IMG/VR virus record: IMGVR_UViG_3300033182_000371
Location: 10,030 to 74,029 of that record
From: a virus
DNA length: 64,000 bases
Reading direction: 5' to 3' (one strand)
Shown: piece after piece, positions 1-44,793 of the stretch
Numbering within the stretch: the stretch's first letter is position 1
Layout of the letters: each line of letters starts with the position of its first letter
Made by a program: the position numbers and the translations under genes
The notes under the pieces: model-generated
What the model was told of the DNA's origin: nothing
Seen by the model: the letters and a program-made list of their open reading frames with translations, nothing else
Database searches by the model: none

Positions 1-1
1 C

Positions 2-319
2 ACCTACGGCAACCTTTGCACGACGATGTTTGTTGTACAGTTCTGCCTCATGCTCTTTAATTTCAAACCCAATACCATCCCACTCGAAGCGGGACTCAAG
101 CAGAGCAGTATTGTTAGAGATCACAGGATGACCAGATCCAATCTCAACAAAAGTTCCTTTGGGTTTACCATCGTTCATGCACAGAACAAACATGTCCTGA
201 TAGCATTGTGAAAAGTTCTGGTGACTTACCAGTTCATATCCAGAAAATTTGTAACGGAGTTCACCTGCTTTCTCAGCAGTGTAAAAGGTTGGCATTTGCC
301 AGGCATTAGGGTCGCTCAT
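2..319 (-). CDS. FkbM-like SAM methyltransferase (partial, runs off window start)
   Basis: Manual translation MSDPNAWQ...SQCYQDMFV...FVEIGSGHPVISNNTALLE..FEWDG; ATG overlaps stop of GT6 gene (ATGA). Confidence 0.65.
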   Translation of the reverse strand, partial: MSDPNAWQMPTFYTAEKAGELRYKFSGYELVSHQNFSQCYQDMFVLCMNDGKPKGTFVEIGSGHPVISNNTALLESRFEWDGIGFEIKEHEAELYNKHRRAKVAVG

Positions 320-1011
320 ACTTGGTAAGATGAATTATCTTTGGCTAGGTGGATAATTTTTTGTTGATAGGGATAGTTAGGAAAGCATTCTGGAAATGCA
401 TAATCAGGAGGCAGTGCATTGACATTCTCTTGATTGTCAATAAAGAATTTATTAAGGTGACTTTCATCATGCCATATGGCAATTATATCATTCTTATAGT
501 CTTTGTCAACTCTATCTTTTAAGAGTTTCATCATTGGAATAACAGACTTGATCTTCCCTCCCCATAGACATCCCTGATAATAAGATACAGGATCTCCAGT
601 CACACATGCTTCAGATTCAAGACGCCGCTCAAAGGTCCCAGTTCCAGTATTGTAATGGCATGGGTGATGGACAGCGATGAAATCTTTCTGATCATCAAAG
701 AACTCTTCAGGAGTGATTACCTGATTAACTCTCATGTCAGCATCAAGGAATACTAACCAGTCATGCTGTTCCAATTCTTCTTGCGCTAACAAGATAGTGT
801 GGAACCTTTCCAAAGTGATAGCAGGCCATCCCTTGTGAGGAATTTGCATGACCGTTATATTGGAGGGAAGATCTCCATCCAATTCACCATCAGTGAATAC
901 GAAATATTGTTTGTCTAGACCAGGAAAAAGTTTTTCTTCACAGGTCTCGTAGTAATTGGGAAAGAAGTCAAGATACTTGTTAGTACCAATAAAGATAACA
1001 GCAACACTCAT
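316..1011 (-). CDS. Glycosyltransferase family 6 (ABO/alpha-1,3-Gal transferase-like)
   Basis: FLDADM (DXD), YYQGCLWGG, WHDESHLNK signature; start taken at MSVAVIF overlapping GT11 stop. Confidence 0.9.
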   Translation of the reverse strand: MSVAVIFIGTNKYLDFFPNYYETCEEKLFPGLDKQYFVFTDGELDGDLPSNITVMQIPHKGWPAITLERFHTILLAQEELEQHDWLVFLDADMRVNQVITPEEFFDDQKDFIAVHHPCHYNTGTGTFERRLESEACVTGDPVSYYQGCLWGGKIKSVIPMMKLLKDRVDKDYKNDIIAIWHDESHLNKFFIDNQENVNALPPDYAFPECFPNYPYQQKIIHLAKDNSSYQV

Positions 1012-1817
1012 ACAACTTCCCAACCTTCACAATACAAATCTTTAGTATTATTAGTTTGATCCAAAGGAGGACCAAACCACTTAGATGGTGCAATTACTCT
1101 CTTGTTCTCATTAGTAGAAAGCCATGCTCCCCACCAACTGAATGAACTATTGGCAATAATAAAATCACTGCAGAGAGACATCAAACAAAGATCAAGATAT
1201 TGATCCCTGTTCTCGGAAACTAAGAACCTGTCATTATCAAACAGATCCTCTTGAAGGCACCACTCTGGATCATCAGAAAAAATAATCACCTCACGATCAG
1301 AGTCGAACCGTGCCAACGCTTCCCTATAGTAATTTATATCACAAATAGGATGGTGAGAATACTGAGCGTAGTCAGTGCGACGAACATGCAATGCGATAGG
1401 GTTAGTTACCTCCTTACGCATTTTTTTACATGGTTCTAGATACTCGTCCTTGAATGTAAAGTCTGCAAGAATATCTTTTCTGATATGCTTGAAGTATTTT
1501 TCTGATTGGAAAAAACCAAATAAACTTACAAAGTCAGGGCAGTTGTTGAAAAGATTCTCATCAAATTCAAAACTTTCTTCCCTAACAATAGGACGGTCCT
1601 GATCGATATACTGAACTTGAAGTGCATTAAGGTCATGCAATTCAAAAGGAACGAACAGTTGATGCTCGTTCCATTCATCTGCTTTATTCTTATAGTTTGA
1701 TGGGGGGACACAGTAATTAAATCCCCTATTAGCAGCGATACCTTTGACAGCGGCATACTGAAACATTTGATTGGCAAGACGCTCTTTCATCTTGCCGACA
1801 TAATTAATACCAATCAT
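1008..1817 (-). CDS. Glycosyltransferase family 11 (alpha-1,2-fucosyltransferase-like)
   Basis: LANQMFQYA, GFFQSEKYF, HVRRTDY, FSDD, NSSFSWWGAWL motifs. Confidence 0.9.
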   Translation of the reverse strand: MIGINYVGKMKERLANQMFQYAAVKGIAANRGFNYCVPPSNYKNKADEWNEHQLFVPFELHDLNALQVQYIDQDRPIVREESFEFDENLFNNCPDFVSLFGFFQSEKYFKHIRKDILADFTFKDEYLEPCKKMRKEVTNPIALHVRRTDYAQYSHHPICDINYYREALARFDSDREVIIFSDDPEWCLQEDLFDNDRFLVSENRDQYLDLCLMSLCSDFIIANSSFSWWGAWLSTNENKRVIAPSKWFGPPLDQTNNTKDLYCEGWEVV

Positions 1818-2767
1818 CTTGTCTGTAAGTCAGTGTTTGCAATATACCATTCATAGGTCTTACGAAGACCGTCCATTAATTTATACTTCGGTTTCCAACC
1901 TTTATCCAGAAGTTTGGAGTAGTCCAAAGGACGCTTAGGTGTACCATCTGGTTTAGAAGTATCCCACTTAATCTCACCAGGATAACCAGTAATGCTAGCG
2001 ATCATCTCTGCCAGTTCTTTGATAGAAACATCTTCACCCGATCCAACATTCAATAACTCTGCAGACTCATAGTTCTCCATAGCGAAGATACATGCATCAG
2101 CAAGGTCATCACAGTGGAGGAACTCACGGCGAGGAGTGCCTGTACCCCAACAGGTAACAGGATCATCACCTTGCTGCCAGTTGTTGAACTTCTGGAGCAT
2201 AGCGGGGATCACATGCCCGTTCATGGGGTGGAAGTTATCGTTAGGACCATACAGGTTAGCAGGCATCAGAGAGACGCCTTTGAACCCATACTGCTTGTAG
2301 TAAGACTTCAGCATGTAGATGCCATGGATCTTAGCGAGAGCATACGCATCGTTGGTAGACTCTAGTTCTCCAGACATCAGACACTCTTCCTTCACAGGAG
2401 TCGGTGCAAACTTAGGGTAGATGCATACGCTTCCAAGGAAGAGAAACTTCTGCACACCATACTCATAGGCGTAATGAATGAGGTTGGTTTGGATCTGAGT
2501 ATTCTGGTAGATAAACTCCGCCGAGTAGGTATCATTGGCGTGGATGCCACCAACACGAGCAGCAGCATCGAACACATAGTCAATACCTTGAGACCTAAAG
2601 AACTTTTTAACTGCAACCTGATCCATGAGATCAAGTTCCTGCCGAGTTCTAGTGATGATGTTCTCGTAACCTTCTTGCTGAAGACGGCGAACAATGGCAG
2701 ATCCAACTAAACCACGATGACCAGCGACAAAAATTCTTGCGTGTTTCTGCATTGTTCTCAGTTTCAT
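1814..2767 (-). CDS. fcl: GDP-L-fucose synthase (start may be 2752)
   Basis: GHRGLVG, AARVGGI, GSVCIYP, YALAK, NLYGPNDNF, RREFLH. Confidence 0.95.
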   Translation of the reverse strand: MKLRTMQKHARIFVAGHRGLVGSAIVRRLQQEGYENIITRTRQELDLMDQVAVKKFFRSQGIDYVFDAAARVGGIHANDTYSAEFIYQNTQIQTNLIHYAYEYGVQKFLFLGSVCIYPKFAPTPVKEECLMSGELESTNDAYALAKIHGIYMLKSYYKQYGFKGVSLMPANLYGPNDNFHPMNGHVIPAMLQKFNNWQQGDDPVTCWGTGTPRREFLHCDDLADACIFAMENYESAELLNVGSGEDVSIKELAEMIASITGYPGEIKWDTSKPDGTPKRPLDYSKLLDKGWKPKYKLMDGLRKTYEWYIANTDLQTR

Positions 2768-4014
2768 TGAATAATTACAACTTCAGGTTCAGGTAGAGGG
2801 AACAGGAAACGCTTTCCTTTGAACTTAGGGTTCTTCAGGAAGAAGTCCCTGAAGTGCCAAGGAAGTACGATGTGAAGATCAAACTCACGCATCATGACAT
2901 CCTCTTCATCAACGATAGGAATCCATGTGCCAGGAGTAAATGATCCTTCCTTATCGGGATTGACATCACCAACCATCTGAACATCCTCAGGACCAATTTC
3001 CCAGGTCTGAAGAGTCACATTACCTTTGGTGCTGGCACCGAGAGCACAGATCTTTGCTCCATTGTTCTTGTAGAACTCAATAATCTTCCAGAACTGTTCC
3101 TTACATCCATTGATACGATCACTGAACTCTTCCCATGGTTGAACAGTATCGAGACCCATATCAATCTCTTGAGCAAGAACCCCAGTCAGTTTGACCGTAC
3201 ACTCTTTACGCTCACTATTAGTTGTGGGAGTAACAACAACAGAAATACTACCACCATTAACATCATTAAACTCAAAGTCAACGATCTTGAATCCAGACTT
3301 ATCCATGATGTATTTGAGTTGCCTCATACCATAGTAAGACAGATGCTCATGGCACACTGTATCAAACGAATTGACACGCAGCATCGTAGGCATGTAGCTC
3401 TGCTCAAGCACCCAAATACCCTGAGGATCAAGACACTCATGTACCTGACGAGCAAACTCACAGGGATCTTCCAGGTCATAGAACATCGAGAACGATGTAA
3501 TAATCTTTGCTTTCTGCTTACCAAAACGATCACGGAAAGCATCGGCAGAGAAGAAGTCTGCAATGAAATTCACATGATCAGGAATGTATTCTTTGAACTT
3601 CTTAGAAGTAGGATCAATGCTCATGAGTTGCAGGTCATGAGGGAAGCATCCAAGGAAGGTTCCATCATTACCAGCAATATCAACAACGATATCACCAGAC
3701 TCAAGGTCGGTGTCTGCCATGATCTTGAGTGCCTTCTCTTTGAGGTGGCGAACCATGCTACCGTTCAGACCAGAACGATACCCATACTCATCACCGTACA
3801 TAGTAGGCAGATCAAAGGTATGCTCAAGTTGAACATGACCACATCCACCTTTCTTTTCGTCACACTTGACGAGAGTCAGAGGACCTTTATACATGTCCTC
3901 ATCAATTTCTTTGGGAAAAATGCCAGAGAGATATTGATCACCAAGATCCAAGACTGTAATCAGGTGTTCATTACCACATACTCTACACTTTTCAATTTTG
4001 TAAAACTTACTCAT
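2764..4014 (-). CDS. NDP-hexose C-methyltransferase
   Basis: N-terminal Zn site (CRVC...C...CGHVQL), [26 protein letters not shown]. Confidence 0.85.
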
Positions 4015-5003
4015 TGTCCGTTAATGCACATGTCTTCTACGAGTTCTTGGAAACTAATTTCTGGTTCCCATCCTAGCACAGTTTTTGCCTTTGTGGCATC
4101 CCCAAGTAGTTGCTCTACTTCAGTCGGGCGGTAATATTTAGGGTTAACGCGAATGATCTCTTTATTCATATTCTTACAGAATCCAACCTCGTCTAATCCC
4201 TCACCACGCCACTCAATATTGAATCCAAAGTAAGACGCTGCCTCATTGACAAATTGTCTGACACTACGCATTTCACCAGTAGCAAGCACAAAATCATCAG
4301 GAGTCTCGTGCTGGGTAATCATCCACATGCCACGAACATAGTCCTTAGCATGACCCCAGTCACGCTGAGCATCCAGGTTTCCCAACTCTAAGACATCTTG
4401 GAATCCACTTGAGATGTTTGCGAGTCCTCTCGTGATCTTACGGGTAACGAAGGTTTCACCTCTCCGTGGGGACTCATGATTGAAAAGTATACCGTTGCTA
4501 GCATGGATACCATACGCTTCACGATAGTTCCTAACGATCCAATACGCATACATTTTTGCTACACCATATGGTGAGCGAGGATAGAATGGTGTTGTTTCTT
4601 TTTGTGGAACTTCTTGCACCAATCCATACAGTTCGCTAGTAGATGCTTGATAGAACTTGCAAGGGTGATCCAACAAACGAATTGCCTCCAGGAGACGCAA
4701 GGTTCCTAGAGCATCTACTTCTCCTGTGTACTCAGGCATATCAAAGGACACCTTAACATGACTCATTGCTGCCAGGTTATATACCTCAGTTGGTTTGATC
4801 TTTTGAATCAAACTGATGAGATTACCAGCATCAGTCATGTCTCCATAATGTTTATGGATTCTATTATAGATGTGATCAATACGATGTGTATTAATAAGAG
4901 AAGAACGGCGTACAATGCCATGAACTTCATATCCTTTTTCAAGGAGAAATTCGGCAAGGTACGAACCGTCCTGTCCTGTTATTCCTGTAATTAATGCTCT
5001 CAT
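4011..5003 (-). CDS. gmd: GDP-mannose 4,6-dehydratase
   Basis: [45 protein letters not shown]. Confidence 0.97.
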
Positions 5004-6324: not shown

Positions 6325-6424
6325 GGTGTAACATTCCTTTAATTTGATCTAGTTCTTCGTGAATATCTTGATGATGAAACCTAAGAGGTTTTTGAATTAA
6401 CTCTTTCATTTTTTTCTTTTTCAT
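6230..6424 (-). CDS. Hypothetical protein
   Basis: ATGA overlap with upstream gene, but long overlap with downstream ORF. Confidence 0.45.
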   Translation of the reverse strand: MKKKKMKELIQKPLRFHHQDIHEELDQIKGMLHHVVSQMQSLQHRIDQLQQDSVLRVREHDDSG

Positions 6425-7068
6425 AGGAAAATTACTTCAGTAAATCGAGTAGTGTCTTTGAAGAAGTTATCGACTATAGTCTGACCATGAAACCACTGTC
6501 CAGGAAAAACAACTCCACAATTAAATCGATCCAGTATGCACAGTTCTTCTTCGAACTGTTTTGAATTCTTCCAAGGTTTAGTATGCTCAGTGTCAGTTTT
6601 CCCAATAAAGAAATTTGCCTTTGTGCTTTGTGCTTTGTATAAAGATGTTCCCGCTTTTAAATGATGAGTTTTATTCAAGAATGTAATGAAGTTTACTTTA
6701 CCATCAGTATGAGGGTGCCAATGATTACCTAGTCCAGGAAAATCATCTATCAATCTGAATTGATTGAAGACATTAAATGTTCCCTCTTCCTTCAATTCAT
6801 ATAAAGTATATAGTTTACTAATAAGAAATTTTCTATTAAGATCCCATCTATTATCCAGGAATAGTTGACCGTCCATAAAGTCAACACCATTCAAATTGTT
6901 ACCATGTTTATTGGAAACAATTGCATTTACAGATGTAAGATACTCATAAACTCTATCTGGATGTTTGTAGATGTTGTCTATGAATACTATCTTCGAATCT
7001 CTCCAAGGAATAATATCAATATTCCACAACGAATTATATTCGAAGTCAGATGGTCTAAAAAATTTCAT
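6421..7068 (-). CDS. 2OG-Fe(II) oxygenase-like protein
   Basis: PHTD...WFHG...TRF (HxD...H...R). Confidence 0.7.
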   Translation of the reverse strand: MKFFRPSDFEYNSLWNIDIIPWRDSKIVFIDNIYKHPDRVYEYLTSVNAIVSNKHGNNLNGVDFMDGQLFLDNRWDLNRKFLISKLYTLYELKEEGTFNVFNQFRLIDDFPGLGNHWHPHTDGKVNFITFLNKTHHLKAGTSLYKAQSTKANFFIGKTDTEHTKPWKNSKQFEEELCILDRFNCGVVFPGQWFHGQTIVDNFFKDTTRFTEVIFL

Positions 7069-7139
7069 GGGAAATACTGGATTCGAACCAGTGACTTATT
7101 GCTTGTAAGGCAACCACTCTACCGCTGAGTTAATCTCCC
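7068..7139 (-). tRNA. tRNA-Val(TAC)
   Basis: GGGAGATTAACTCAGCGGTAGAG...CTTACAA...GGTTCGAATCC...TTTCCCA cloverleaf. Confidence 0.93.
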
Positions 7140-7216
7140 TGGCGACTCAAGTAGGATTCGAACCTACGACCGACTGCTTAGAAGGCAGTTGCTCTATCCA
7201 GCTGAGCTATTGAGTC
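7140..7216 (-). tRNA. tRNA-Arg(TCT), encoded CCA
   Basis: GACTCAATAGCTCAGCTGGATAGAGC ACTGC-CTTCTAA-GCAGT...GGTTCGAATCC...TTGAGTCGCCA. Confidence 0.95.
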
Positions 7217-7814
7217 CTGAGAACATGAAAGTATAATTAACTCTCCGATGATCAGATCCTTTCTTCATAGAAACCTTGTTGGTTTCATGGAAGTATTTAG
7301 AGTTGAATATGAGAAGACGATTACACGCATATGGAATAATCGTTTTCTCACTTCTAGTGTACTCTAGATATTTTCTGATCAACTTGACATCGGTATTATA
7401 CTCGCGCCAGGTCCATGTCGGAGGAGGTTTGATGTCATAAAGAATCAAACCATTTTTCTCTGGATCATTAACAGAAGAGTTTGGTGTGACCCAGAGATTC
7501 ACATTATAGCATGCTGGATCAGCATGAGGGGTAACGCCGTTGGCGTTGTTGTCGTAAACGAATGCCCAACCTCTGTCAAAGTGACCGAGGAATGGGAACC
7601 TCGTTTCCAACCCTGTAATTATAGCAGATAGAAGGGGGTGACGCAAGTGGTCTGGAGAAAAGTTGAGTGAGTAATAGTCCTCGTAGATGTCGTCTGGATC
7701 ATCTGCATTGAGAGCATACTCACGCAAGTCATCAATAACATCTGGTAGAAATAAATTATCTACCACATGATATCTTTCCTCTTCAATTATCTTCTTTACG
7801 GTACTTGAACGCAT
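7194..7814 (-). CDS. 2OG-Fe(II) oxygenase-like protein
   Basis: PHAD...YFHET...RRVNYTF; stop lies inside tRNA-Arg. Confidence 0.75.
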   Translation of the reverse strand: MRSSTVKKIIEEERYHVVDNLFLPDVIDDLREYALNADDPDDIYEDYYSLNFSPDHLRHPLLSAIITGLETRFPFLGHFDRGWAFVYDNNANGVTPHADPACYNVNLWVTPNSSVNDPEKNGLILYDIKPPPTWTWREYNTDVKLIRKYLEYTRSEKTIIPYACNRLLIFNSKYFHETNKVSMKKGSDHRRVNYTFMFSGLNSSAG

Positions 7815-8313
7815 AGGTAAAACGATGTTCAGAGTTTAGGGGAGTTGCCCTGTGCAAAATTCTAGATGTAAACTTCACTAGTGTATTAGGTATTGGTGGA
7901 ATGGCAATTATTTTTTCATCCAGATAAAATTCCGTAGTACCTCCATCGTTTAACCCATTATAATTGGAGTTCGCATAGAAGATGAATGTTAATTGATCTT
8001 CATCATCTTCACAGTCTTGATGGAAGTTAGCAACCTCATTAGGGGCAAAACAATTAATGTATGCTCTATAAAGTCTATATCCACCTATGTCTGCAAACTT
8101 TTGGCAGATTAAATTGTGGAAGATGTCTACAATTTCTTGATGTTCTTCATCTTCTGGACATAACTCAGAAACCATTCCTGTTGGTTTATGACTTGAGTCA
8201 TCCCTTTCGCCATAAGTGAAGGCAGCATTTTGAGCAAACTCAGAGACAAACCTAAAATCTTCATTAGATAAAGATTTTTCTACTGCTAGGATGCTTGGTC
8301 TTTCTTGTGTCAT
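7783..8313 (-). CDS. 2OG-Fe(II) oxygenase (prolyl-hydroxylase-like)
   Basis: FHQD, GGTTEF, LHRA, HRFT. Confidence 0.85.
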   Translation of the reverse strand: MTQERPSILAVEKSLSNEDFRFVSEFAQNAAFTYGERDDSSHKPTGMVSELCPEDEEHQEIVDIFHNLICQKFADIGGYRLYRAYINCFAPNEVANFHQDCEDDEDQLTFIFYANSNYNGLNDGGTTEFYLDEKIIAIPPIPNTLVKFTSRILHRATPLNSEHRFTYAFKYRKEDN

Positions 8314-8321
8314 TTTAAATA

Positions 8322-8393
8322 AGCGGGGTATCGGAATCGAACCGACGACATCTAACTTGGAAGGATAGCGTTCTACCGCTGAACTAACCCCGC
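8322..8393 (-). tRNA. tRNA-Gly(TCC)
   Basis: GCGGGGTTAGTTCAGCGGTAGAAC...CTTCCAA...GGTTCGATTCC...CCCCGCT. Confidence 0.93.
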
Positions 8394-8403
8394 GATAGAT
8401 ACA

Positions 8404-8973
8404 TTATAACACATCTTCTAACTTTTTGACGCGCCAGACCACAGTATATCTATACACATAGGGATGGCGTGGTCCTAGACCTCTGTGAGGAATCTCAGAC
8501 GGAAAAATAAGAACTCTGCCAGGAACATACTCATGCTCCTCAATGACATTATCGTTGTCATCTACGATTTGAAACTGTCCACCCCACTCTTTAGTATCCC
8601 ATTTAGTATTAACCATGTACATGATAGTATGATCTCCAGGATCTCCATCAACATGGGATGTGCCATCACAAAAAGAATGCTGCAGATTGAAATCGATTCT
8701 ATTAAGAAACAGTCTCTCTTCAATGCTATTCTCAATATGATCTAGCATATCAAAGAAGCACTCAGTTTTAGGAACCCAGTTAACTATTTTATTAATCGAT
8801 TGTCTCTCAAAGAGATTCTCTCCAAATAGTTTATGAGTTCCATGCTGCCCTGCAGGATAACCTGTTCCGTTTGCCTCATTAATAGCAGTTACAGGAAGAT
8901 GAAGCATAGTCTTTTCGACTCGCATCATATAATCATAATCAAAAAGATTATCAAAAATTTGAGCAATCATCAA
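8404..8973 (-). CDS. 2OG-Fe(II) oxygenase
   Basis: SHVD, WGGQF, PHRG, YRYT. Confidence 0.85.
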   Translation of the reverse strand: MMIAQIFDNLFDYDYMMRVEKTMLHLPVTAINEANGTGYPAGQHGTHKLFGENLFERQSINKIVNWVPKTECFFDMLDHIENSIEERLFLNRIDFNLQHSFCDGTSHVDGDPGDHTIMYMVNTKWDTKEWGGQFQIVDDNDNVIEEHEYVPGRVLIFPSEIPHRGLGPRHPYVYRYTVVWRVKKLEDVL

Positions 8974-9284
8974 TCACGCTGTCTCCAGTCATCAGGTTTA
9001 TCTCTTTGAAACCAATCAACAATTTCATCTGCTGACTGGAATCCCGTTCTGTGGTTGGATGGGTCGGGGTCACCTAAACCCATCCTATTCATAAAATCAT
9101 CCATGCTCCCTTCTTGAATATCACCAGAAGCTTGGCGTCGTGCTTTGTTTAACCAGTCTCTTGCCGTTGTATATGACTTGGCAAGTTTCTCTGCCCAGAT
9201 CATATCTTCAAGATTCACCTCTTCGTTGTTCGATATCTTTTTGCAGATATCTTCAAGACGAAGACGATACTGTGTTGACAGCAT
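8970..9284 (-). CDS. Hypothetical cyanophage protein
   Basis: MLSTQYRLRLEDICKKI...DWRQRD; TAAATA upstream. Confidence 0.75.
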   Translation of the reverse strand: MLSTQYRLRLEDICKKISNNEEVNLEDMIWAEKLAKSYTTARDWLNKARRQASGDIQEGSMDDFMNRMGLGDPDPSNHRTGFQSADEIVDWFQRDKPDDWRQRD

Positions 9285-9316
9285 ACCACATATGTCCAAT
9301 CTTTCTAGTATTTAGA

Positions 9317-9403
9317 CGGAGAGTTAGGGATTTGAACCCTAGATGAAGTTACCCCCATACAGCATTTCCAGTGCTGCTCCTTAAACCACTCGGACAACTC
9401 TCC
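9317..9403 (-). tRNA. tRNA-Ser(GGA)
   Basis: GGAGAGTTGTCCGAGTGG...CAGCA-CTGGAAA-TGCTG, long variable arm, GGTTCAAATCC. Confidence 0.93.
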
Positions 9404-9456
9404 AAGGTGGGTCGGATATGATGATCCCGACCCATATGATAGACAACGCCTATCAA

Positions 9457-9528
9457 AGCCCCCGACAAGATTTGAACTTGCGACATCGGCTTTACAAAAG
9501 CCGCGCTCTACCACTGAGCTACAAGGGC
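9457..9528 (-). tRNA. tRNA-Thr(TGT)
   Basis: GCCCTTGTAGCTCAGTGGTAGAGC CGGCT-TTTGTAA-AGCCG...GTTCAAATC. Confidence 0.93.
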
Positions 9529-9537
9529 GTGTGATAT

Positions 9538-10179
9538 TTATTTCACCACAGCGATGACAGGTTTGTAAAGCCAACCTGTCTTGCAGTAATTGCAGTGCTC
9601 AGGAACTTCAACCTCATAAGGTTTGAAACTCATGTCAAACTTTGTTTCAAGTTCCATATTACTTAACATAACATAGAACCGATCAACATGTCCCTGCATT
9701 GGAGCACCTTGGGTAGAACAATAGAAAGAGAACTTTGCTTTCTCGTTCGAATGTTCACTGATACATGTTACCATAAAATGAATGATATCGCAACCAGCGT
9801 ATTGAAGAATCTCTGGTGTCATCCACTTCTCTTCAATGTAAGGATCATAAAAGAAGCAATCGTACTTTCCAAGATGATCCCTACAAGGCCATCCTTGATT
9901 GAGCACTGTAATGTTTTTATAATCCTTTGCCCATTCCAATGCTCTCGCATATGCAACAGGGTCTGGTTCTAGAACAGTATATGATTTGATGTCATGTTTC
10001 TGAAACTGGGTCGCAGAGTATCCCATACCAAAACCAACCTCTAGGATATCTCCGTAAGGTTCTAAGGCATCGACACATTCTTCCATATACTTCTTCTCCC
10101 ATTCCATCATATATTGATGGTCTTCGGAAGTTCCGTAAAGAATATCTTCGTCGTTTATGTCTTTTGTGTATTTTGCCAT
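9538..10179 (-). CDS. SAM-dependent methyltransferase (GAMT/Rmt2-like)
   Basis: MMEWEKKYM, ILEVGFGMGYSA, FFYDPY. Confidence 0.8.
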   Translation of the reverse strand: MAKYTKDINDEDILYGTSEDHQYMMEWEKKYMEECVDALEPYGDILEVGFGMGYSATQFQKHDIKSYTVLEPDPVAYARALEWAKDYKNITVLNQGWPCRDHLGKYDCFFYDPYIEEKWMTPEILQYAGCDIIHFMVTCISEHSNEKAKFSFYCSTQGAPMQGHVDRFYVMLSNMELETKFDMSFKPYEVEVPEHCNYCKTGWLYKPVIAVVK

Positions 10180-10601
10180 GGGAAATAATCTTTTTTCATA
10201 TACCTCCCAAGAATATTACTATTGTAATACTTTGGAGTTCCATCTTCTAAGGATTCAGTCAAAACATTATGAAGGAATAATTGCTTAGTCTCTTCGAAAT
10301 TAACAAATCCTTTCGTCTTATGTAGGCTTAAAATTTCTCTCTTGAAATTAGAGTTCCCAAGCTCCTTTCTTTCTGCGCTAAGTTCATCAGAACTGCCATA
10401 GTATTTCTTCCAGTCACTTTCACTTCTAACTCTCCTAGTTTTGCCTCTAGGCTTTCGTAGCGACCAGAAGTACTTTCTGCCAATGTAAATCCGACCAGAA
10501 ATGAGATTAGTGATACGGTAGACAAACCCGTAGTAATCACCAATATCCTCACTACTGAACGGAGTACCTTCGTAAGTCCATGGGTTTTCATAATCAACCA
10601 T
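10155..10601 (-). CDS. GIY-YIG family nuclease (Seg-like)
   Basis: GFVYRITN...YIGRK, YYGSS, E...YYN. Confidence 0.75.
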   Translation of the reverse strand: MVDYENPWTYEGTPFSSEDIGDYYGFVYRITNLISGRIYIGRKYFWSLRKPRGKTRRVRSESDWKKYYGSSDELSAERKELGNSNFKREILSLHKTKGFVNFEETKQLFLHNVLTESLEDGTPKYYNSNILGRYMKKDYFPWQNTQKT

Positions 10602-10652: not shown

Positions 10653-10688
10653 ATTCTACTCATAAAAAAGGAGGGTGTCAAGCCCTCC
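10653..10688 (-). promoter_or_regulatory. Terminator hairpin with embedded sigma70 promoter
   Basis: GGAGGG-CTTGACA-CCCTCC-T6; TTGACA-17nt-TAGAAT. Confidence 0.75.
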
Positions 10689-10696
10689 CAGTATTA

Positions 10697-12430
10697 TCAG
10701 ACTCCTTTATATCCTGGTGCCTTAATTTCTTTTGGTTTCCCATCAGGACCAGTTACATACTTGACCCCAGACTTACCAGTCTTCGGAGACTCCCAAGGAT
10801 TCAAGGTTCCCTTAACTGGAGGGAATGCCTCGCCCAGGACCTCCTCTACGATGCTTTCGATCTGTTCAGCGGTCAGTTGCTCCATGATCGCCTCAGCGTG
10901 CTCTACGCTGTCCATGAGACCATTCTCATCAAGATATGTTAGAATGACATCATAGAGATTAAAATCATCCTTCATCCAACGGGGAACAGTATCGTCCTTC
11001 TGGGCTGCCATTTCCTTGCGAGCCTTCTCATTGTTCTCCTGACGCTTCTTCATATTTGTTTCCAAATACGAATCATCCTTCTTGTCTTTCTTGTATTGAG
11101 GATGATCGTCTACACTATGTCCACGCTTTTTCTCAAGACGCTTCTTACGCTCTTCAGTGCCCTTCTCGGCATCAACATCACGGACACCTTCCTTAACACA
11201 GTTAGGAACTTGACGACCGTCCTTAGTCTTAGTACCCTTTGCCTTGTAACCATCCCAGCACTTGCTAGCACCGACATTCTTCCGTGCCTGCTTCAAGGAT
11301 TCGATGACAGATTTAGTTTCTTCAACCATCTCACCCTCAACTTCATGAGAATTCATCAGAGGATTCTTAGTATTGTAAGTCATCTTAGACTTAGGAGGAT
11401 TGGCACTCATCAGGGGGTTAGGTGTCATGCCAGATCTTCTGCCATAGTTAGCACCAAACTTTGCCTTGAACTTAGTTTGTCCAAGAGTCTCTGCCTGTCT
11501 AGTAGCAGCAGATGCTGCTTTAAAGTCTCCTGCAGCACTAGCTGACTTTGCCTTTGCCTGCAGTGCCTTGTAGTCAGCGTTGGGATCGGGTTTGGGTGCA
11601 GGTTTGGGTGTAGAGGGTTGAGAAGAGTATGCAGACCCCGTAGAGGTCGATCCAGTTCTTGCTACCTGTGCGTTCTGCTTTGCTACTTCCTGTTTGGCAA
11701 CATTAGCAGCGGCAGAACGCACACCAGTTTGTGCGGGTGGTGGAGTGGATGCTGCTTTTGTTTCTGCTTTCTGTTGAGCAAGTTTCTGTTGCTTCTGTGC
11801 AGCAGTGATAGCAGTAGAGGTAGTGCTACCACCTTCACCATACTTATTGGTTCCAAAGAATTTCTCAGCATCAGCAGCTGGGACCTGTGGTCTAGGAGGA
11901 ACATACGGTTGAGCAACTCTTGGTCTTGGACCAACACCTTGTTCTGGACCTGGCGATTTTTTGTTCCTGTTGCGCCAGTTATTCATAGTGCCTCTAATAA
12001 GATCTAGAGGGAAAAATCCTGTTGCTTGCTGTTCAAAAACAATCGCTCTTGCCTGCTTTTTCTCAGCAGTCTCAAGATTCTCATGGATGCGAGGATTGAC
12101 TGCCTTCATGGCAGAAATAAACTCAGGTCCAACAACATCCATCGGGAGTGCTTCGATGATGTTATCCAGAAGTCTGGCACTCTCATATCCTTCGCCAATC
12201 AGAACCTCAGCAATGGCGCGATACTGCTCAGCATAGACAGGGTTCATTGCATGCAGTCTCTTCAGGTAGAAGGACTCGCATGTGCATTTATCTACTTTCT
12301 TCTTATCTACTTTCTTTCCTTGAGGATTGTCGTCTTTTCTGTTCCAATCTTTTACTTCTTCCTCAGATTTCTTGCCTTCGGCAATCTGAGCATAGGATTC
12401 AGAAAGTTTATCTAAGTGAGAGCGATTCAT
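10697..12430 (-). CDS. Late modular protein, putative internal head polyprotein
   Basis: TATAAATA at 12457-12464; basic modules bounded by Glu; CWDGY...VPNCVKE module. Confidence 0.7.
   Translation of the reverse strand: MNRSHLDKLSESYAQIAEGKKSEEEVKDWNRKDDNPQGKKVDKKKVDKCTCESFYLKRLHAMNPVYAEQYRAIAEVLIGEGYESARLLDNIIEALPMDVVGPEFISAMKAVNPRIHENLETAEKKQARAIVFEQQATGFFPLDLIRGTMNNWRNRNKKSPGPEQGVGPRPRVAQPYVPPRPQVPAADAEKFFGTNKYGEGGSTTSTAITAAQKQQKLAQQKAETKAASTPPPAQTGVRSAAANVAKQEVAKQNAQVARTGSTSTGSAYSSQPSTPKPAPKPDPNADYKALQAKAKSASAAGDFKAASAATRQAETLGQTKFKAKFGANYGRRSGMTPNPLMSANPPKSKMTYNTKNPLMNSHEVEGEMVEETKSVIESLKQARKNVGASKCWDGYKAKGTKTKDGRQVPNCVKEGVRDVDAEKGTEERKKRLEKKRGHSVDDHPQYKKDKKDDSYLETNMKKRQENNEKARKEMAAQKDDTVPRWMKDDFNLYDVILTYLDENGLMDSVEHAEAIMEQLTAEQIESIVEEVLGEAFPPVKGTLNPWESPKTGKSGVKYVTGPDGKPKEIKAPGYKGV
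11189..11296 (-). repeat. 108-bp coding module, copy 1 (LKQARKNVG..CWDGY..VPNCVKE)
   Basis: Same length as 20119-20226, with 29-bp and 16-bp identical blocks. Confidence 0.9.
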
Positions 12431-44262: not shown

Positions 44263-44793
44263 TTATCTTATCATACAAGCAACCGTCACTCTCCAAAATG
44301 GAGTATCTACTTTGATCGGAAGAGCATCATGCAGTTCATTTGATCTGAACACAACAAAATCTCCAGGTTCAAAAGTATATATACGATCTTCGATTTGTAG
44401 TTCTCCGCCCCAGGAAGGATCCCATTGAGGTGATAAGAATCCAACGATGCTCCAAGTATACTTTCCCTTAGCATCACCGTCAGTATGGAACAAAGAGATG
44501 TTACCCTTTCTCTGTGCATTGAATCCTACTGCACCAAGACCACCAACGGGAAGAACAAATCCATACTCTTCCTCAATCTGGTCCCTAATCCTACTCATCA
44601 GAGATACGAAGTATCCAGCAAGGAAGGGACTGTGGATACCATTAGCATCCATGGCAACTGCCCTTGGATAATGAGTGAGAGGATCATCACTGCCAGCATA
44701 GGCACCACCGATCTTCCAGATCGATTCTCCCATTAAGTGACCATATAACTGATCGATGTCACCTTTACTTAAAACATTTTTCGCAATGTACAT
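44263..44793 (-). CDS. 2OG-Fe(II) oxygenase
   Basis: FHTD, WGGEL, LHDA, WRVT. Confidence 0.85.
   Translation of the reverse strand: MYIAKNVLSKGDIDQLYGHLMGESIWKIGGAYAGSDDPLTHYPRAVAMDANGIHSPFLAGYFVSLMSRIRDQIEEEYGFVLPVGGLGAVGFNAQRKGNISLFHTDGDAKGKYTWSIVGFLSPQWDPSWGGELQIEDRIYTFEPGDFVVFRSNELHDALPIKVDTPFWRVTVACMIR

Follow-up and report, generated by a model that had tools for sequence, protein, structure and literature searches.

Introduction

Several 2-oxoglutarate (2OG)-Fe(II) oxygenases are carried by 14 of 16 cyanomyovirus genomes, and tRNA genes co-occur with the hypervariable hot-spots of these phages (Sullivan et al. 2010, PMC3037559). In cyanophages, divergent dioxygenases can form tandem arrays, with ten members in Syn9, for which a role in the tailoring of peptides or secondary metabolites has been suggested (Iyer et al. 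2010, PMC2938197). S-SCSM1 has 24 copies of 2OG-Fe(II) dioxygenases (PMC9602691). Here we analysed a 64-kb stretch, called the window below, of the IMG/VR virus record IMGVR_UViG_3300033182_000371, a fragment (about 39% complete; whole contig, 74 kb) of a T4-like cyanomyovirus. A minus-strand block at 6421-10179 of the window contains a methyltransferase gene, five tRNA genes, one small gene and four divergent 2OG-Fe(II) oxygenase genes, named ox1 to ox4. We consider it likely that two independent accessory modules, the enzyme genes and the tRNA genes, are intermixed here in a hypervariable island, and that the tRNAs were inserted into the junctions of an older oxygenase operon.

The block resembles the published cyanomyovirus sets (PMC3037559, PMC2938197, PMC9602691) in its small, divergent, PF13640-related oxygenases and in its place in an accessory hot-spot, which often holds tRNAs. 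Unlike these sets, the five-gene cassette of the window (the methyltransferase and ox1 to ox4) lacks an equivalent among 50,697 deposited phage genomes, and it has neither a halogenase nor a JmjC member. Tandem divergent dioxygenases and tRNA-linked hot-spots are already published; the specific five-gene cassette in an uncultured lineage is new.

Two other systems are close to the locus. In T4, SegB, a GIY-YIG enzyme encoded inside the tRNA cluster, drives preferential inheritance of the region in mixed infections (PMC2330249). The T4 tRNA region is a co-transcribed tRNA cluster with small open reading frames (ORFs), it has a seg-type GIY-YIG gene at or in the cluster and it is inherited as a mosaic unit, and the window locus appears to be alike in these respects. 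However, the endonuclease of the window is SegE-like and lies at the border, and the cargo consists of oxygenases and not of the small ORFs of T4. The other system is ALKBH8, which also combines a 2OG oxygenase with an S-adenosylmethionine (SAM)-dependent methyltransferase. Its substrates include tRNA-Gly(UCC) and tRNA-Arg(UCU), both of which are encoded in the block. The first-pass annotation of the window proposed a phage tRNA-modification module by analogy with ALKBH8. In ALKBH8, however, an AlkB-type domain, a Trm9-type methyltransferase and an RNA recognition motif are joined in a single protein, whereas the window has separate genes of prolyl 4-hydroxylase (P4H)-like or DUF6445 type and of guanidinoacetate N-methyltransferase (GAMT)-like type, and their linkage to tRNAs is not conserved. 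The analogy fails because the window differs in each defining feature that could be tested.

Occurrence of the cassette and the tRNA genes in related phages

Relatives were selected in two ways. Each oxygenase and the methyltransferase were used as queries, giving 34 distinct IMG/VR contigs in which genes and tRNAs were mapped by tblastn and ARAGORN. The second sample was chosen regardless of enzymes or tRNAs: from NrdA-matched loci (n = 80), 27 records with at least 8 kb downstream were kept. Over both samples, the order methyltransferase-ox1-ox2-ox3-ox4 is kept in 36 distinct uncultured cyanomyovirus contigs. The wider arrangement, segE-methyltransferase-(small gene)-ox1-ox2-ox3-ox4-s82-s80...gmd, is syntenic from 99% down to 42% amino acid identity, and ox4 or the methyltransferase has been lost in some contigs. 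The cassette recurs in marine, seawater and estuary metagenomes of several studies. Its single members are rare in the deposited genomes, where ox3 has one match (37%), the methyltransferase has one (an uncultured phage) and the best match of ox1 is 45%.

The full four-oxygenase array is present without a tRNA in the locus in 14 contigs: ten at about 50-70% identity, three at about 43%, and L131 from the nrdA-selected sample. Records G002, G003 and G006 (40-45 kb) have no match to the Rfam tRNA model RF00005 anywhere, as searched with Infernal. In the relatives, from zero to all three of the tRNA slots of the cassette are filled. The slot after segE/methyltransferase holds Thr, Asn, Ser or Arg, and the ox3/ox4 slot holds Arg with or without Asn and Tyr, followed by Val; the tRNA-Gly slot between ox1 and ox2 is occupied only in the window and two near relatives.

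The nrdA-selected records gave the reciprocal result. tRNA arrays, with up to 24 tRNAs, were found at the same locus in 18 of the 27, with the recurring order Arg(UCU)-Thr(UGU)-Gly(UCC)-Asn-Val(UAC)-s82-Ser-Pro-Ile-Met, and ox1 to ox4 were found in a single record, L131, which was confirmed with hidden Markov models and has no tRNA. In L146 (G021:C1:17379-26233) and L143 (G018), 20-24 tRNAs are packed into about 4-7 kb of this locus. The position downstream of nrdAB-segE and upstream of s82/gmd was confirmed in the relatives as a cyanomyovirus hypervariable island with variable tRNAs and cargo. ORFs adjacent to tRNAs encode ferritin (6), lysozyme (5), HNH endonucleases (2-3), transaldolase, an OprB/SLH porin, a glycosyltransferase and some other 2OG oxygenases. 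In several relatives, ferritin comes right after tRNA-Val, and a 490-amino-acid OprB/SLH porin-like gene comes right after tRNA-Gly. 2OG oxygenases are not enriched beside tRNAs: PF13640 was found in 2 of 25 tRNA-adjacent ORFs, and PF13640 or PF13759 in at most 6 of 137 non-adjacent ORFs of the island (Fisher p = 0.36). An initial PF13640 search of the window's contig missed ox2 and was left out of the counts. The window also encodes a fifth 2OG-Fe(II) oxygenase (44263-44793, minus strand; 176 amino acids; PF13640, 33 bits), which lies about 35 kb from any tRNA and was for this reason counted for the independence of oxygenases and tRNAs. Clustering of tRNAs and oxygenases in the window genome is clearly non-random. 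The comparison with relatives accounts for it by the co-location of two modules in one hot-spot.

The tRNA genes

The window has exactly five tRNAs, all on the minus strand, on which ARAGORN and Infernal agree (RF00005 scores 55.9-72.4 bits; gathering score 29), and no further tRNA was found in the whole 74-kb contig. Together with the ORF list, this bears out the five species first assigned among the methyltransferase and oxygenase genes, Thr(UGU), Ser(GGA), Gly(UCC), Arg(UCU) and Val(UAC). Judged by sequence, they are a standard cyanomyovirus set. Arg(UCU), Gly(UCC), Val(UAC) and Thr(UGU) are among the commonest species in oxygenase-free relatives, and the window tRNAs are up to 90-99% identical to tRNAs with the same anticodon in these phages. 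The first-pass annotation also pointed out that four of the five tRNAs have uridine at position 34 (U34). The count is correct, and it is not distinctive, since 102 of 154 tRNAs (66%) in the oxygenase-free related phages have U34 as well.

The GC content of the window is 41%, and its most used Arg codon is AGA. T4-like cyanophages stay low in GC, and their tRNAs match their low-GC codons for use in high-GC hosts (Limor-Waisberg et al., PMC3152331). Contigs with tRNA-free cassettes have a GC content of 35.5-37.6% and those with tRNA-bearing cassettes of 38-42%, which is consistent with this rule. tRNA content seems to track the composition of phage and host and not the cassette. The GC split between L004-L012, L027, L029, L031-L033 and L131 on one side and the window clade on the other may point to Prochlorococcus-type and Synechococcus-type hosts, respectively.

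These data bear directly on the tRNA-modification idea. By analogy with ALKBH8, the oxygenases would hydroxylate, and the methyltransferase would methylate, the phage tRNAs encoded beside them, at U34 or elsewhere. The genes are tightly interleaved on one strand, U34 predominates, tRNAs occur at several cassette junctions in relatives, and eukaryotic 2OG oxygenases acting on tRNA exist, namely ALKBH8 and TYW5 (PMC2938197). However, cassettes without tRNAs and tRNAs without the cassette are both common in the relatives, as counted above, and U34 is the background state. The enzymes do not fit either: no AlkB-type domain was found (ox1 and ox2 match PF13640, the nearest folds to ox3 are prolyl hydroxylases and ox4 is of DUF6445 type), and the methyltransferase is GAMT-like. 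In addition, bacteria rely on TrhO/TrhP-CmoAB and MnmEG-MnmC in their cmo5U and mnm5U pathways rather than on 2OG oxygenases. We consider modification of the neighbouring tRNAs by the cassette very improbable. The oxygenase-tRNA linkage across related phages that this idea needed was not found.

Order of events at the junctions

The block is densely packed, with spacers of 0-15 nt or overlaps. In the window, the small gene and ox1 overlap by 4 nt and ox2 and ox3 by 32 nt. Where tRNAs are absent, successive genes of the array share 4, 32 and 4 nt, ox3 ends in ...FMFE/K and its stop codon overlaps ox4 by 4 nt. The junction at 7066-7216 of the window is different. The ox3 frame runs 23 nt into tRNA-Arg, so that its last seven codons (GLNSSAG, then stop) are tRNA-Arg sequence, and the last base of tRNA-Val, the discriminator, is the A of the ox4 ATG. 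The ox3 C-terminus is variable where tRNAs are present. These features of the ox3/tRNA-Arg/tRNA-Val junction look like insertion scars because ox3 has its regular end and the 4-nt overlap with ox4 in the tRNA-free relatives. Maximum-likelihood analysis of ox3 placed tRNA-free arrays on either side of the midpoint root, and the presence of tRNAs takes one or two changes. The simplest interpretation has the tRNAs entering an oxygenase operon that was already in place, rather than the oxygenases moving in between tRNAs. This direction is suggested by the fixed gene order, the coupled 4-nt overlaps in the absence of tRNAs and the scar-like, variable C-terminus of ox3.

The opposite direction, that each oxygenase was inserted separately between pre-existing tRNAs, is the literal form of the alternative given in the first-pass annotation, in which tRNAs are insertion hot-spots for oxygenase cassettes. 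The shared hypervariable island stands; the direction appears to be the reverse, as the oxygenase order is the backbone and the tRNAs come and go. In favour of separate insertion, diverse cargo (ferritin, lysozyme, HNH, talC, porin and other 2OG oxygenases) lies between the tRNAs of oxygenase-free relatives, the tRNA-Val-s82 junction is conserved with and without ox4, and tRNAs have been proposed as recombination substrates (Sullivan et al., PMC3037559). Nevertheless, tRNA-free arrays on both sides of the ox3 root have the same ox1-ox2-ox3-ox4 order with 4-nt overlaps. Independent insertions would not recreate one order and are an unlikely source of it. Furthermore, the 32-nt ox2/ox3 overlap is never interrupted. 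We regard separate insertion of the oxygenases as unlikely.

It is also conceivable that the tRNAs serve as processing punctuation, in which RNase P/Z cuts would split the polycistron and set the stability or translation of the individual oxygenase mRNAs, so that interleaving is selected for regulation. The short spacers, the ox3 stop inside tRNA-Arg and the A shared by tRNA-Val and the ox4 ATG would suit such a role, as would the lack of an internal terminator and, weakly, an RNA-library contig that bridges ox3-ox2 into tRNA-Gly. However, many relatives have cassettes without tRNAs, and slot occupancy and tRNA identity vary freely. tRNA processing would also remove the ox3 stop codon and the start context of ox4, which looks like a tolerated scar rather than design. 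A regulatory role of this kind is improbable, and insertion of tRNAs into the older operon is preferred.

The four oxygenases

The first assignment of all four oxygenases to the 2OG-Fe(II) superfamily holds, on Pfam, predicted fold or family profiles, depending on the protein, and on an invariant HxD...H...R motif in each. The motif positions are invariant within each family: H107, D109, H163 and R175 in ox1; H98, D100, H154 and R164 in ox2; H97, D99, H176 and R190 in ox3; and H120, D122, H194 and R208 in ox4 (90 sequences). ox1 and ox2 score above the gathering threshold of PF13640, which implies a double-stranded beta-helix fold, and the best sequence matches of ox1 in the PDB are HIF-type prolyl hydroxylases. 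ox3 has no Pfam match. Its AlphaFold model (pLDDT 85) gives as top Foldseek matches the P4H of P. putida (4j25) and PHD2, with TM of about 0.6 and probability 1.00. ox4 itself has no Pfam match either, and a homologue search with it returned only close relatives without names or Pfam assignments. Its family comprises 231 cluster representatives; of 90 scanned, 68 match DUF6445 (PF20043) and 17 match PF13640. Alignment of the ox4 family with ox3 by hhalign placed the triads together at 78% probability. The AlphaFold2 model of ox4 is poor (pLDDT 50, from a 10-sequence alignment), and ox4 was therefore assigned from its profiles. When profiles of the ox3 and ox4 families were searched against the PDB, no relative was obtained.

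ox1 to ox4 cannot be aligned with one another by BLASTP, indicating that they are not recent duplicates, and comparison of the shallow family alignments (Neff about 2) by hhalign yielded no significant match. A Pfam scan at E <= 0.01 assigned PF13640 to ox1 and ox2 and nothing to ox3 and ox4, and the AlkB-type domain (2OG-FeII_Oxy_2) was absent. ox2 was considered as a member of the FlmC family of 2OG-Fe(II) oxygenases (NCBIfam), and this was rejected because the score of 71 bits against a cut-off of 240 is too weak to tie the cassette to the glycan operon. Caulobacter FlmC is treated as a putative cytidylyltransferase in the glycosylation of flagellin with pseudaminic acid (PMC7591256).

PPHD of Pseudomonas (PDB 4j25/4iw3), whose substrate is EF-Tu, and PHD2 are the best structural neighbours of the ox3 model as well as the best PDB matches of ox1 by sequence, and they share the HxD...H...R active site. 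Identity is, however, about 11-15%, and the substrate-binding loops are not comparable. A prolyl or EF-Tu substrate is unsupported for the window enzymes. A literature search on phage prolyl hydroxylases acting on EF-Tu returned nothing relevant.

The methyltransferase

The methyltransferase gene noted in the first-pass annotation is real; the ALKBH8-like role suggested for it is not supported, as both its profile and its neighbours are GAMT-like. The family profile matches the GAMT structures 1xcj, 1p1b, 1khh and 3orh (E 1e-10 to 8e-9) in the SAM-binding half, with an alignment that covers profile positions 15-119, the first 105 or so residues only. Its motif I is LEVGFGMGYSA. The N-terminal WE..YM helix, motif I (LEVGFGM) and the D..YDxY motif align with GAMT, in keeping with a class I SAM fold of this family, whereas the C-terminal substrate half is phage-specific and does not align with GAMT or any solved structure. 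This half has conserved Cys residues in the family, including a C-N-Y-C/T motif near the end (C196-N-Y-C199). All ten of the best-matching Atlas clusters carry PF27704, and the Pfam scan gave no Trm9-type match (Methyltransf_11, PF08241).

Following the view of PMC2938197, the chemistry of the cassette is most likely hydroxylation of a protein, peptide or small molecule together with N-methylation. Another possibility is that the methyltransferase and the four oxygenases form one coupled pathway, restricted to an uncultured cyanomyovirus lineage, that remodels the host translation apparatus post-translationally or, as a variant, acts on host or phage tRNA. P4H-like enzymes carry out prolyl and arginyl hydroxylation of EF-Tu and ribosomal proteins, and Rmt2/GAMT-like enzymes carry out arginine delta-N-methylation. 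Repeated capture of tRNAs would then reflect selection for a co-expressed "translation takeover" unit. We consider such a pathway unlikely.

Transcription and homing

It is plausible that segE, the methyltransferase, the tRNAs and the oxygenases form one transcription unit, because the best promoter match lies upstream of segE and no terminator-like site is found on the minus strand from this candidate promoter until 5975-5959. Three metatranscriptome runs and one DNA run were compared, using assembled contigs only. RNA-library contigs from relatives at 90-95% identity cover ox4, ox3-ox2 and ox1-methyltransferase-segE, with DNA carry-over possible. Contig depth rises 5- to 50-fold over the tRNA bins (7136-7302 and 8305-8471; runs X18, X19 and X1), and many loose ends lie exactly at tRNA borders. 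These spikes fit tRNA sequences that are common to numerous co-occurring phages in which the adjacent genes differ. At joints that skip the oxygenases, the sides comprise only 27-50 nt of tRNA sequence found in many phages, and these joints were used as evidence neither for transcription nor for deletion variants.

A SegE homologue lies between nrdB and the tRNA/oxygenase region in 24 of the 27 nrdA-selected records, once on the opposite strand. By comparison with T4, homing by the SegE-like enzyme is a plausible source of the mosaicism of the island.

Gene layout of the window

The minus strand carries, in this order, nrdA, nrdB, a gene for a 577-amino-acid protein, the SegE-type gene, the block, s64/s82/s80 and a sugar operon led by gmd. 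The features of the island are listed in Table 1. The six ORFs of the block encode proteins of 213, 109, 189, 176, 206 and 215 amino acids, from 9538-10179 down to 6421-7068. In relatives, the gene for the small phrog_507 protein is also found apart from the cassette. The 577-amino-acid protein (10697-12430, minus strand) is mosaic; its matches in relatives are confined to isolated stretches, such as residues 45-140 and 370-436, with identities of 37-89%. Directly downstream of the island is the gmd-led sugar-nucleotide/glycosyltransferase operon (1-5003, minus strand). With 82-94% identity in almost every relative that bears the cassette, gmd is far better conserved than the cassette.

Table 1. 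Features of the island and its border, in window coordinates
Feature	Position	Strand	Evidence and remarks
Candidate sigma70-like promoter, TTGACA-17-TAGAAT, 11/12	10653..10681	-	best consensus match, upstream of segE
SegE-type GIY-YIG homing endonuclease, conserved left border of island	10155..10601	-	PF19835, E 1.4e-53
SAM-dependent methyltransferase, guanidinoacetate-N-methyltransferase-like	9538..10179	-	family profile vs GAMT structures; PF27704 neighbours
tRNA-Thr(UGU)	9457..9528	-	ARAGORN; Infernal 67.5 bits
tRNA-Ser(GGA), long variable arm	9315..9404	-	ARAGORN; Infernal 55.9 bits
Small conserved cyanophage protein, phrog_507	8970..9299	-	E 8e-59; stop overlaps ox1 start by 4 nt
ox1, P4H-like 2OG-Fe(II) oxygenase	8404..8973	-	PF13640, 29.7 bits vs cut-off 27
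tRNA-Gly(UCC), ox1/ox2 junction	8322..8393	-	ARAGORN; Infernal
ox2, P4H-like 2OG-Fe(II) oxygenase	7783..8313	-	PF13640, 31.0 bits; overlaps ox3 start by 32 nt
ox3, 2OG-Fe(II) oxygenase by predicted fold	7194..7814	-	AlphaFold2 model and Foldseek
tRNA-Arg(UCU), ox3/ox4 junction	7140..7216	-	ARAGORN; Infernal 72.4 bits
tRNA-Val(UAC), zero spacer to tRNA-Arg	7068..7139	-	ARAGORN; Infernal 71.5 bits
ox4, DUF6445-type member of the 2OG-Fe(II) oxygenase superfamily	6421..7068	-	family profile evidence

Discussion

The following picture of the island is proposed. One module is the GAMT-like methyltransferase with four very divergent P4H-like oxygenases in fixed order, translationally coupled by 4-nt stop/start overlaps when free of tRNAs. 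The other module is the usual tRNA set of cyanomyoviruses (Arg-UCU, Thr-UGU, Gly-UCC, Val-UAC and others), which may supply tRNAs for A/U-ending codons to an AT-rich phage whose Synechococcus host is GC-rich. In the window lineage, tRNAs would have entered the junctions of the oxygenase operon and would have been lost again in some relatives, leaving scars such as the ox3 tail derived from tRNA-Arg. The block is probably transcribed from one strand as one early transcript, from which host RNase P and 3' processing would release the tRNAs, as happens in the T4 tRNA region. The mosaic may arise by Seg-type homing and by recombination between co-infecting phages. The oxygenases would most likely hydroxylate a protein, a peptide or a small molecule, and the methyltransferase would N-methylate a guanidino or amino group; neither would act specifically on the neighbouring tRNAs.

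Several points weigh against this picture. The root of the ox3 tree is a midpoint root only, and its pattern could also come from one gain with one loss, or from an interleaved ancestor whose tRNAs were lost by precise deletion. tRNAs entered the cassette at three junctions, and G001, a 93%-complete relative, has two of its three tRNAs inside the cassette. There is some real affinity between tRNA genes and cassette junctions. Most contigs are fragments, so that phages with tRNA-free arrays could carry tRNAs elsewhere, and the enzymes could act on host tRNAs. The case for the promoter and for co-transcription consists of a consensus match and of RNA-library contigs that may contain DNA, and the part given to the SegE-like enzyme in homing is taken from T4 only.

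Cyanomyoviruses are among the most abundant viruses of the ocean, and they carry many 2OG oxygenases. The present analysis removes the attractive idea of a phage tRNA-modification island as unsupported. It indicates instead that tRNA genes behave as mobile inserts that are able to land inside a working operon. The five-gene methyltransferase/oxygenase cassette, which is absent from cultured phages, is a tractable unit for biochemistry. Action of the cassette on the translation machinery or on tRNA, if real, would be a new kind of host-takeover chemistry in phages.

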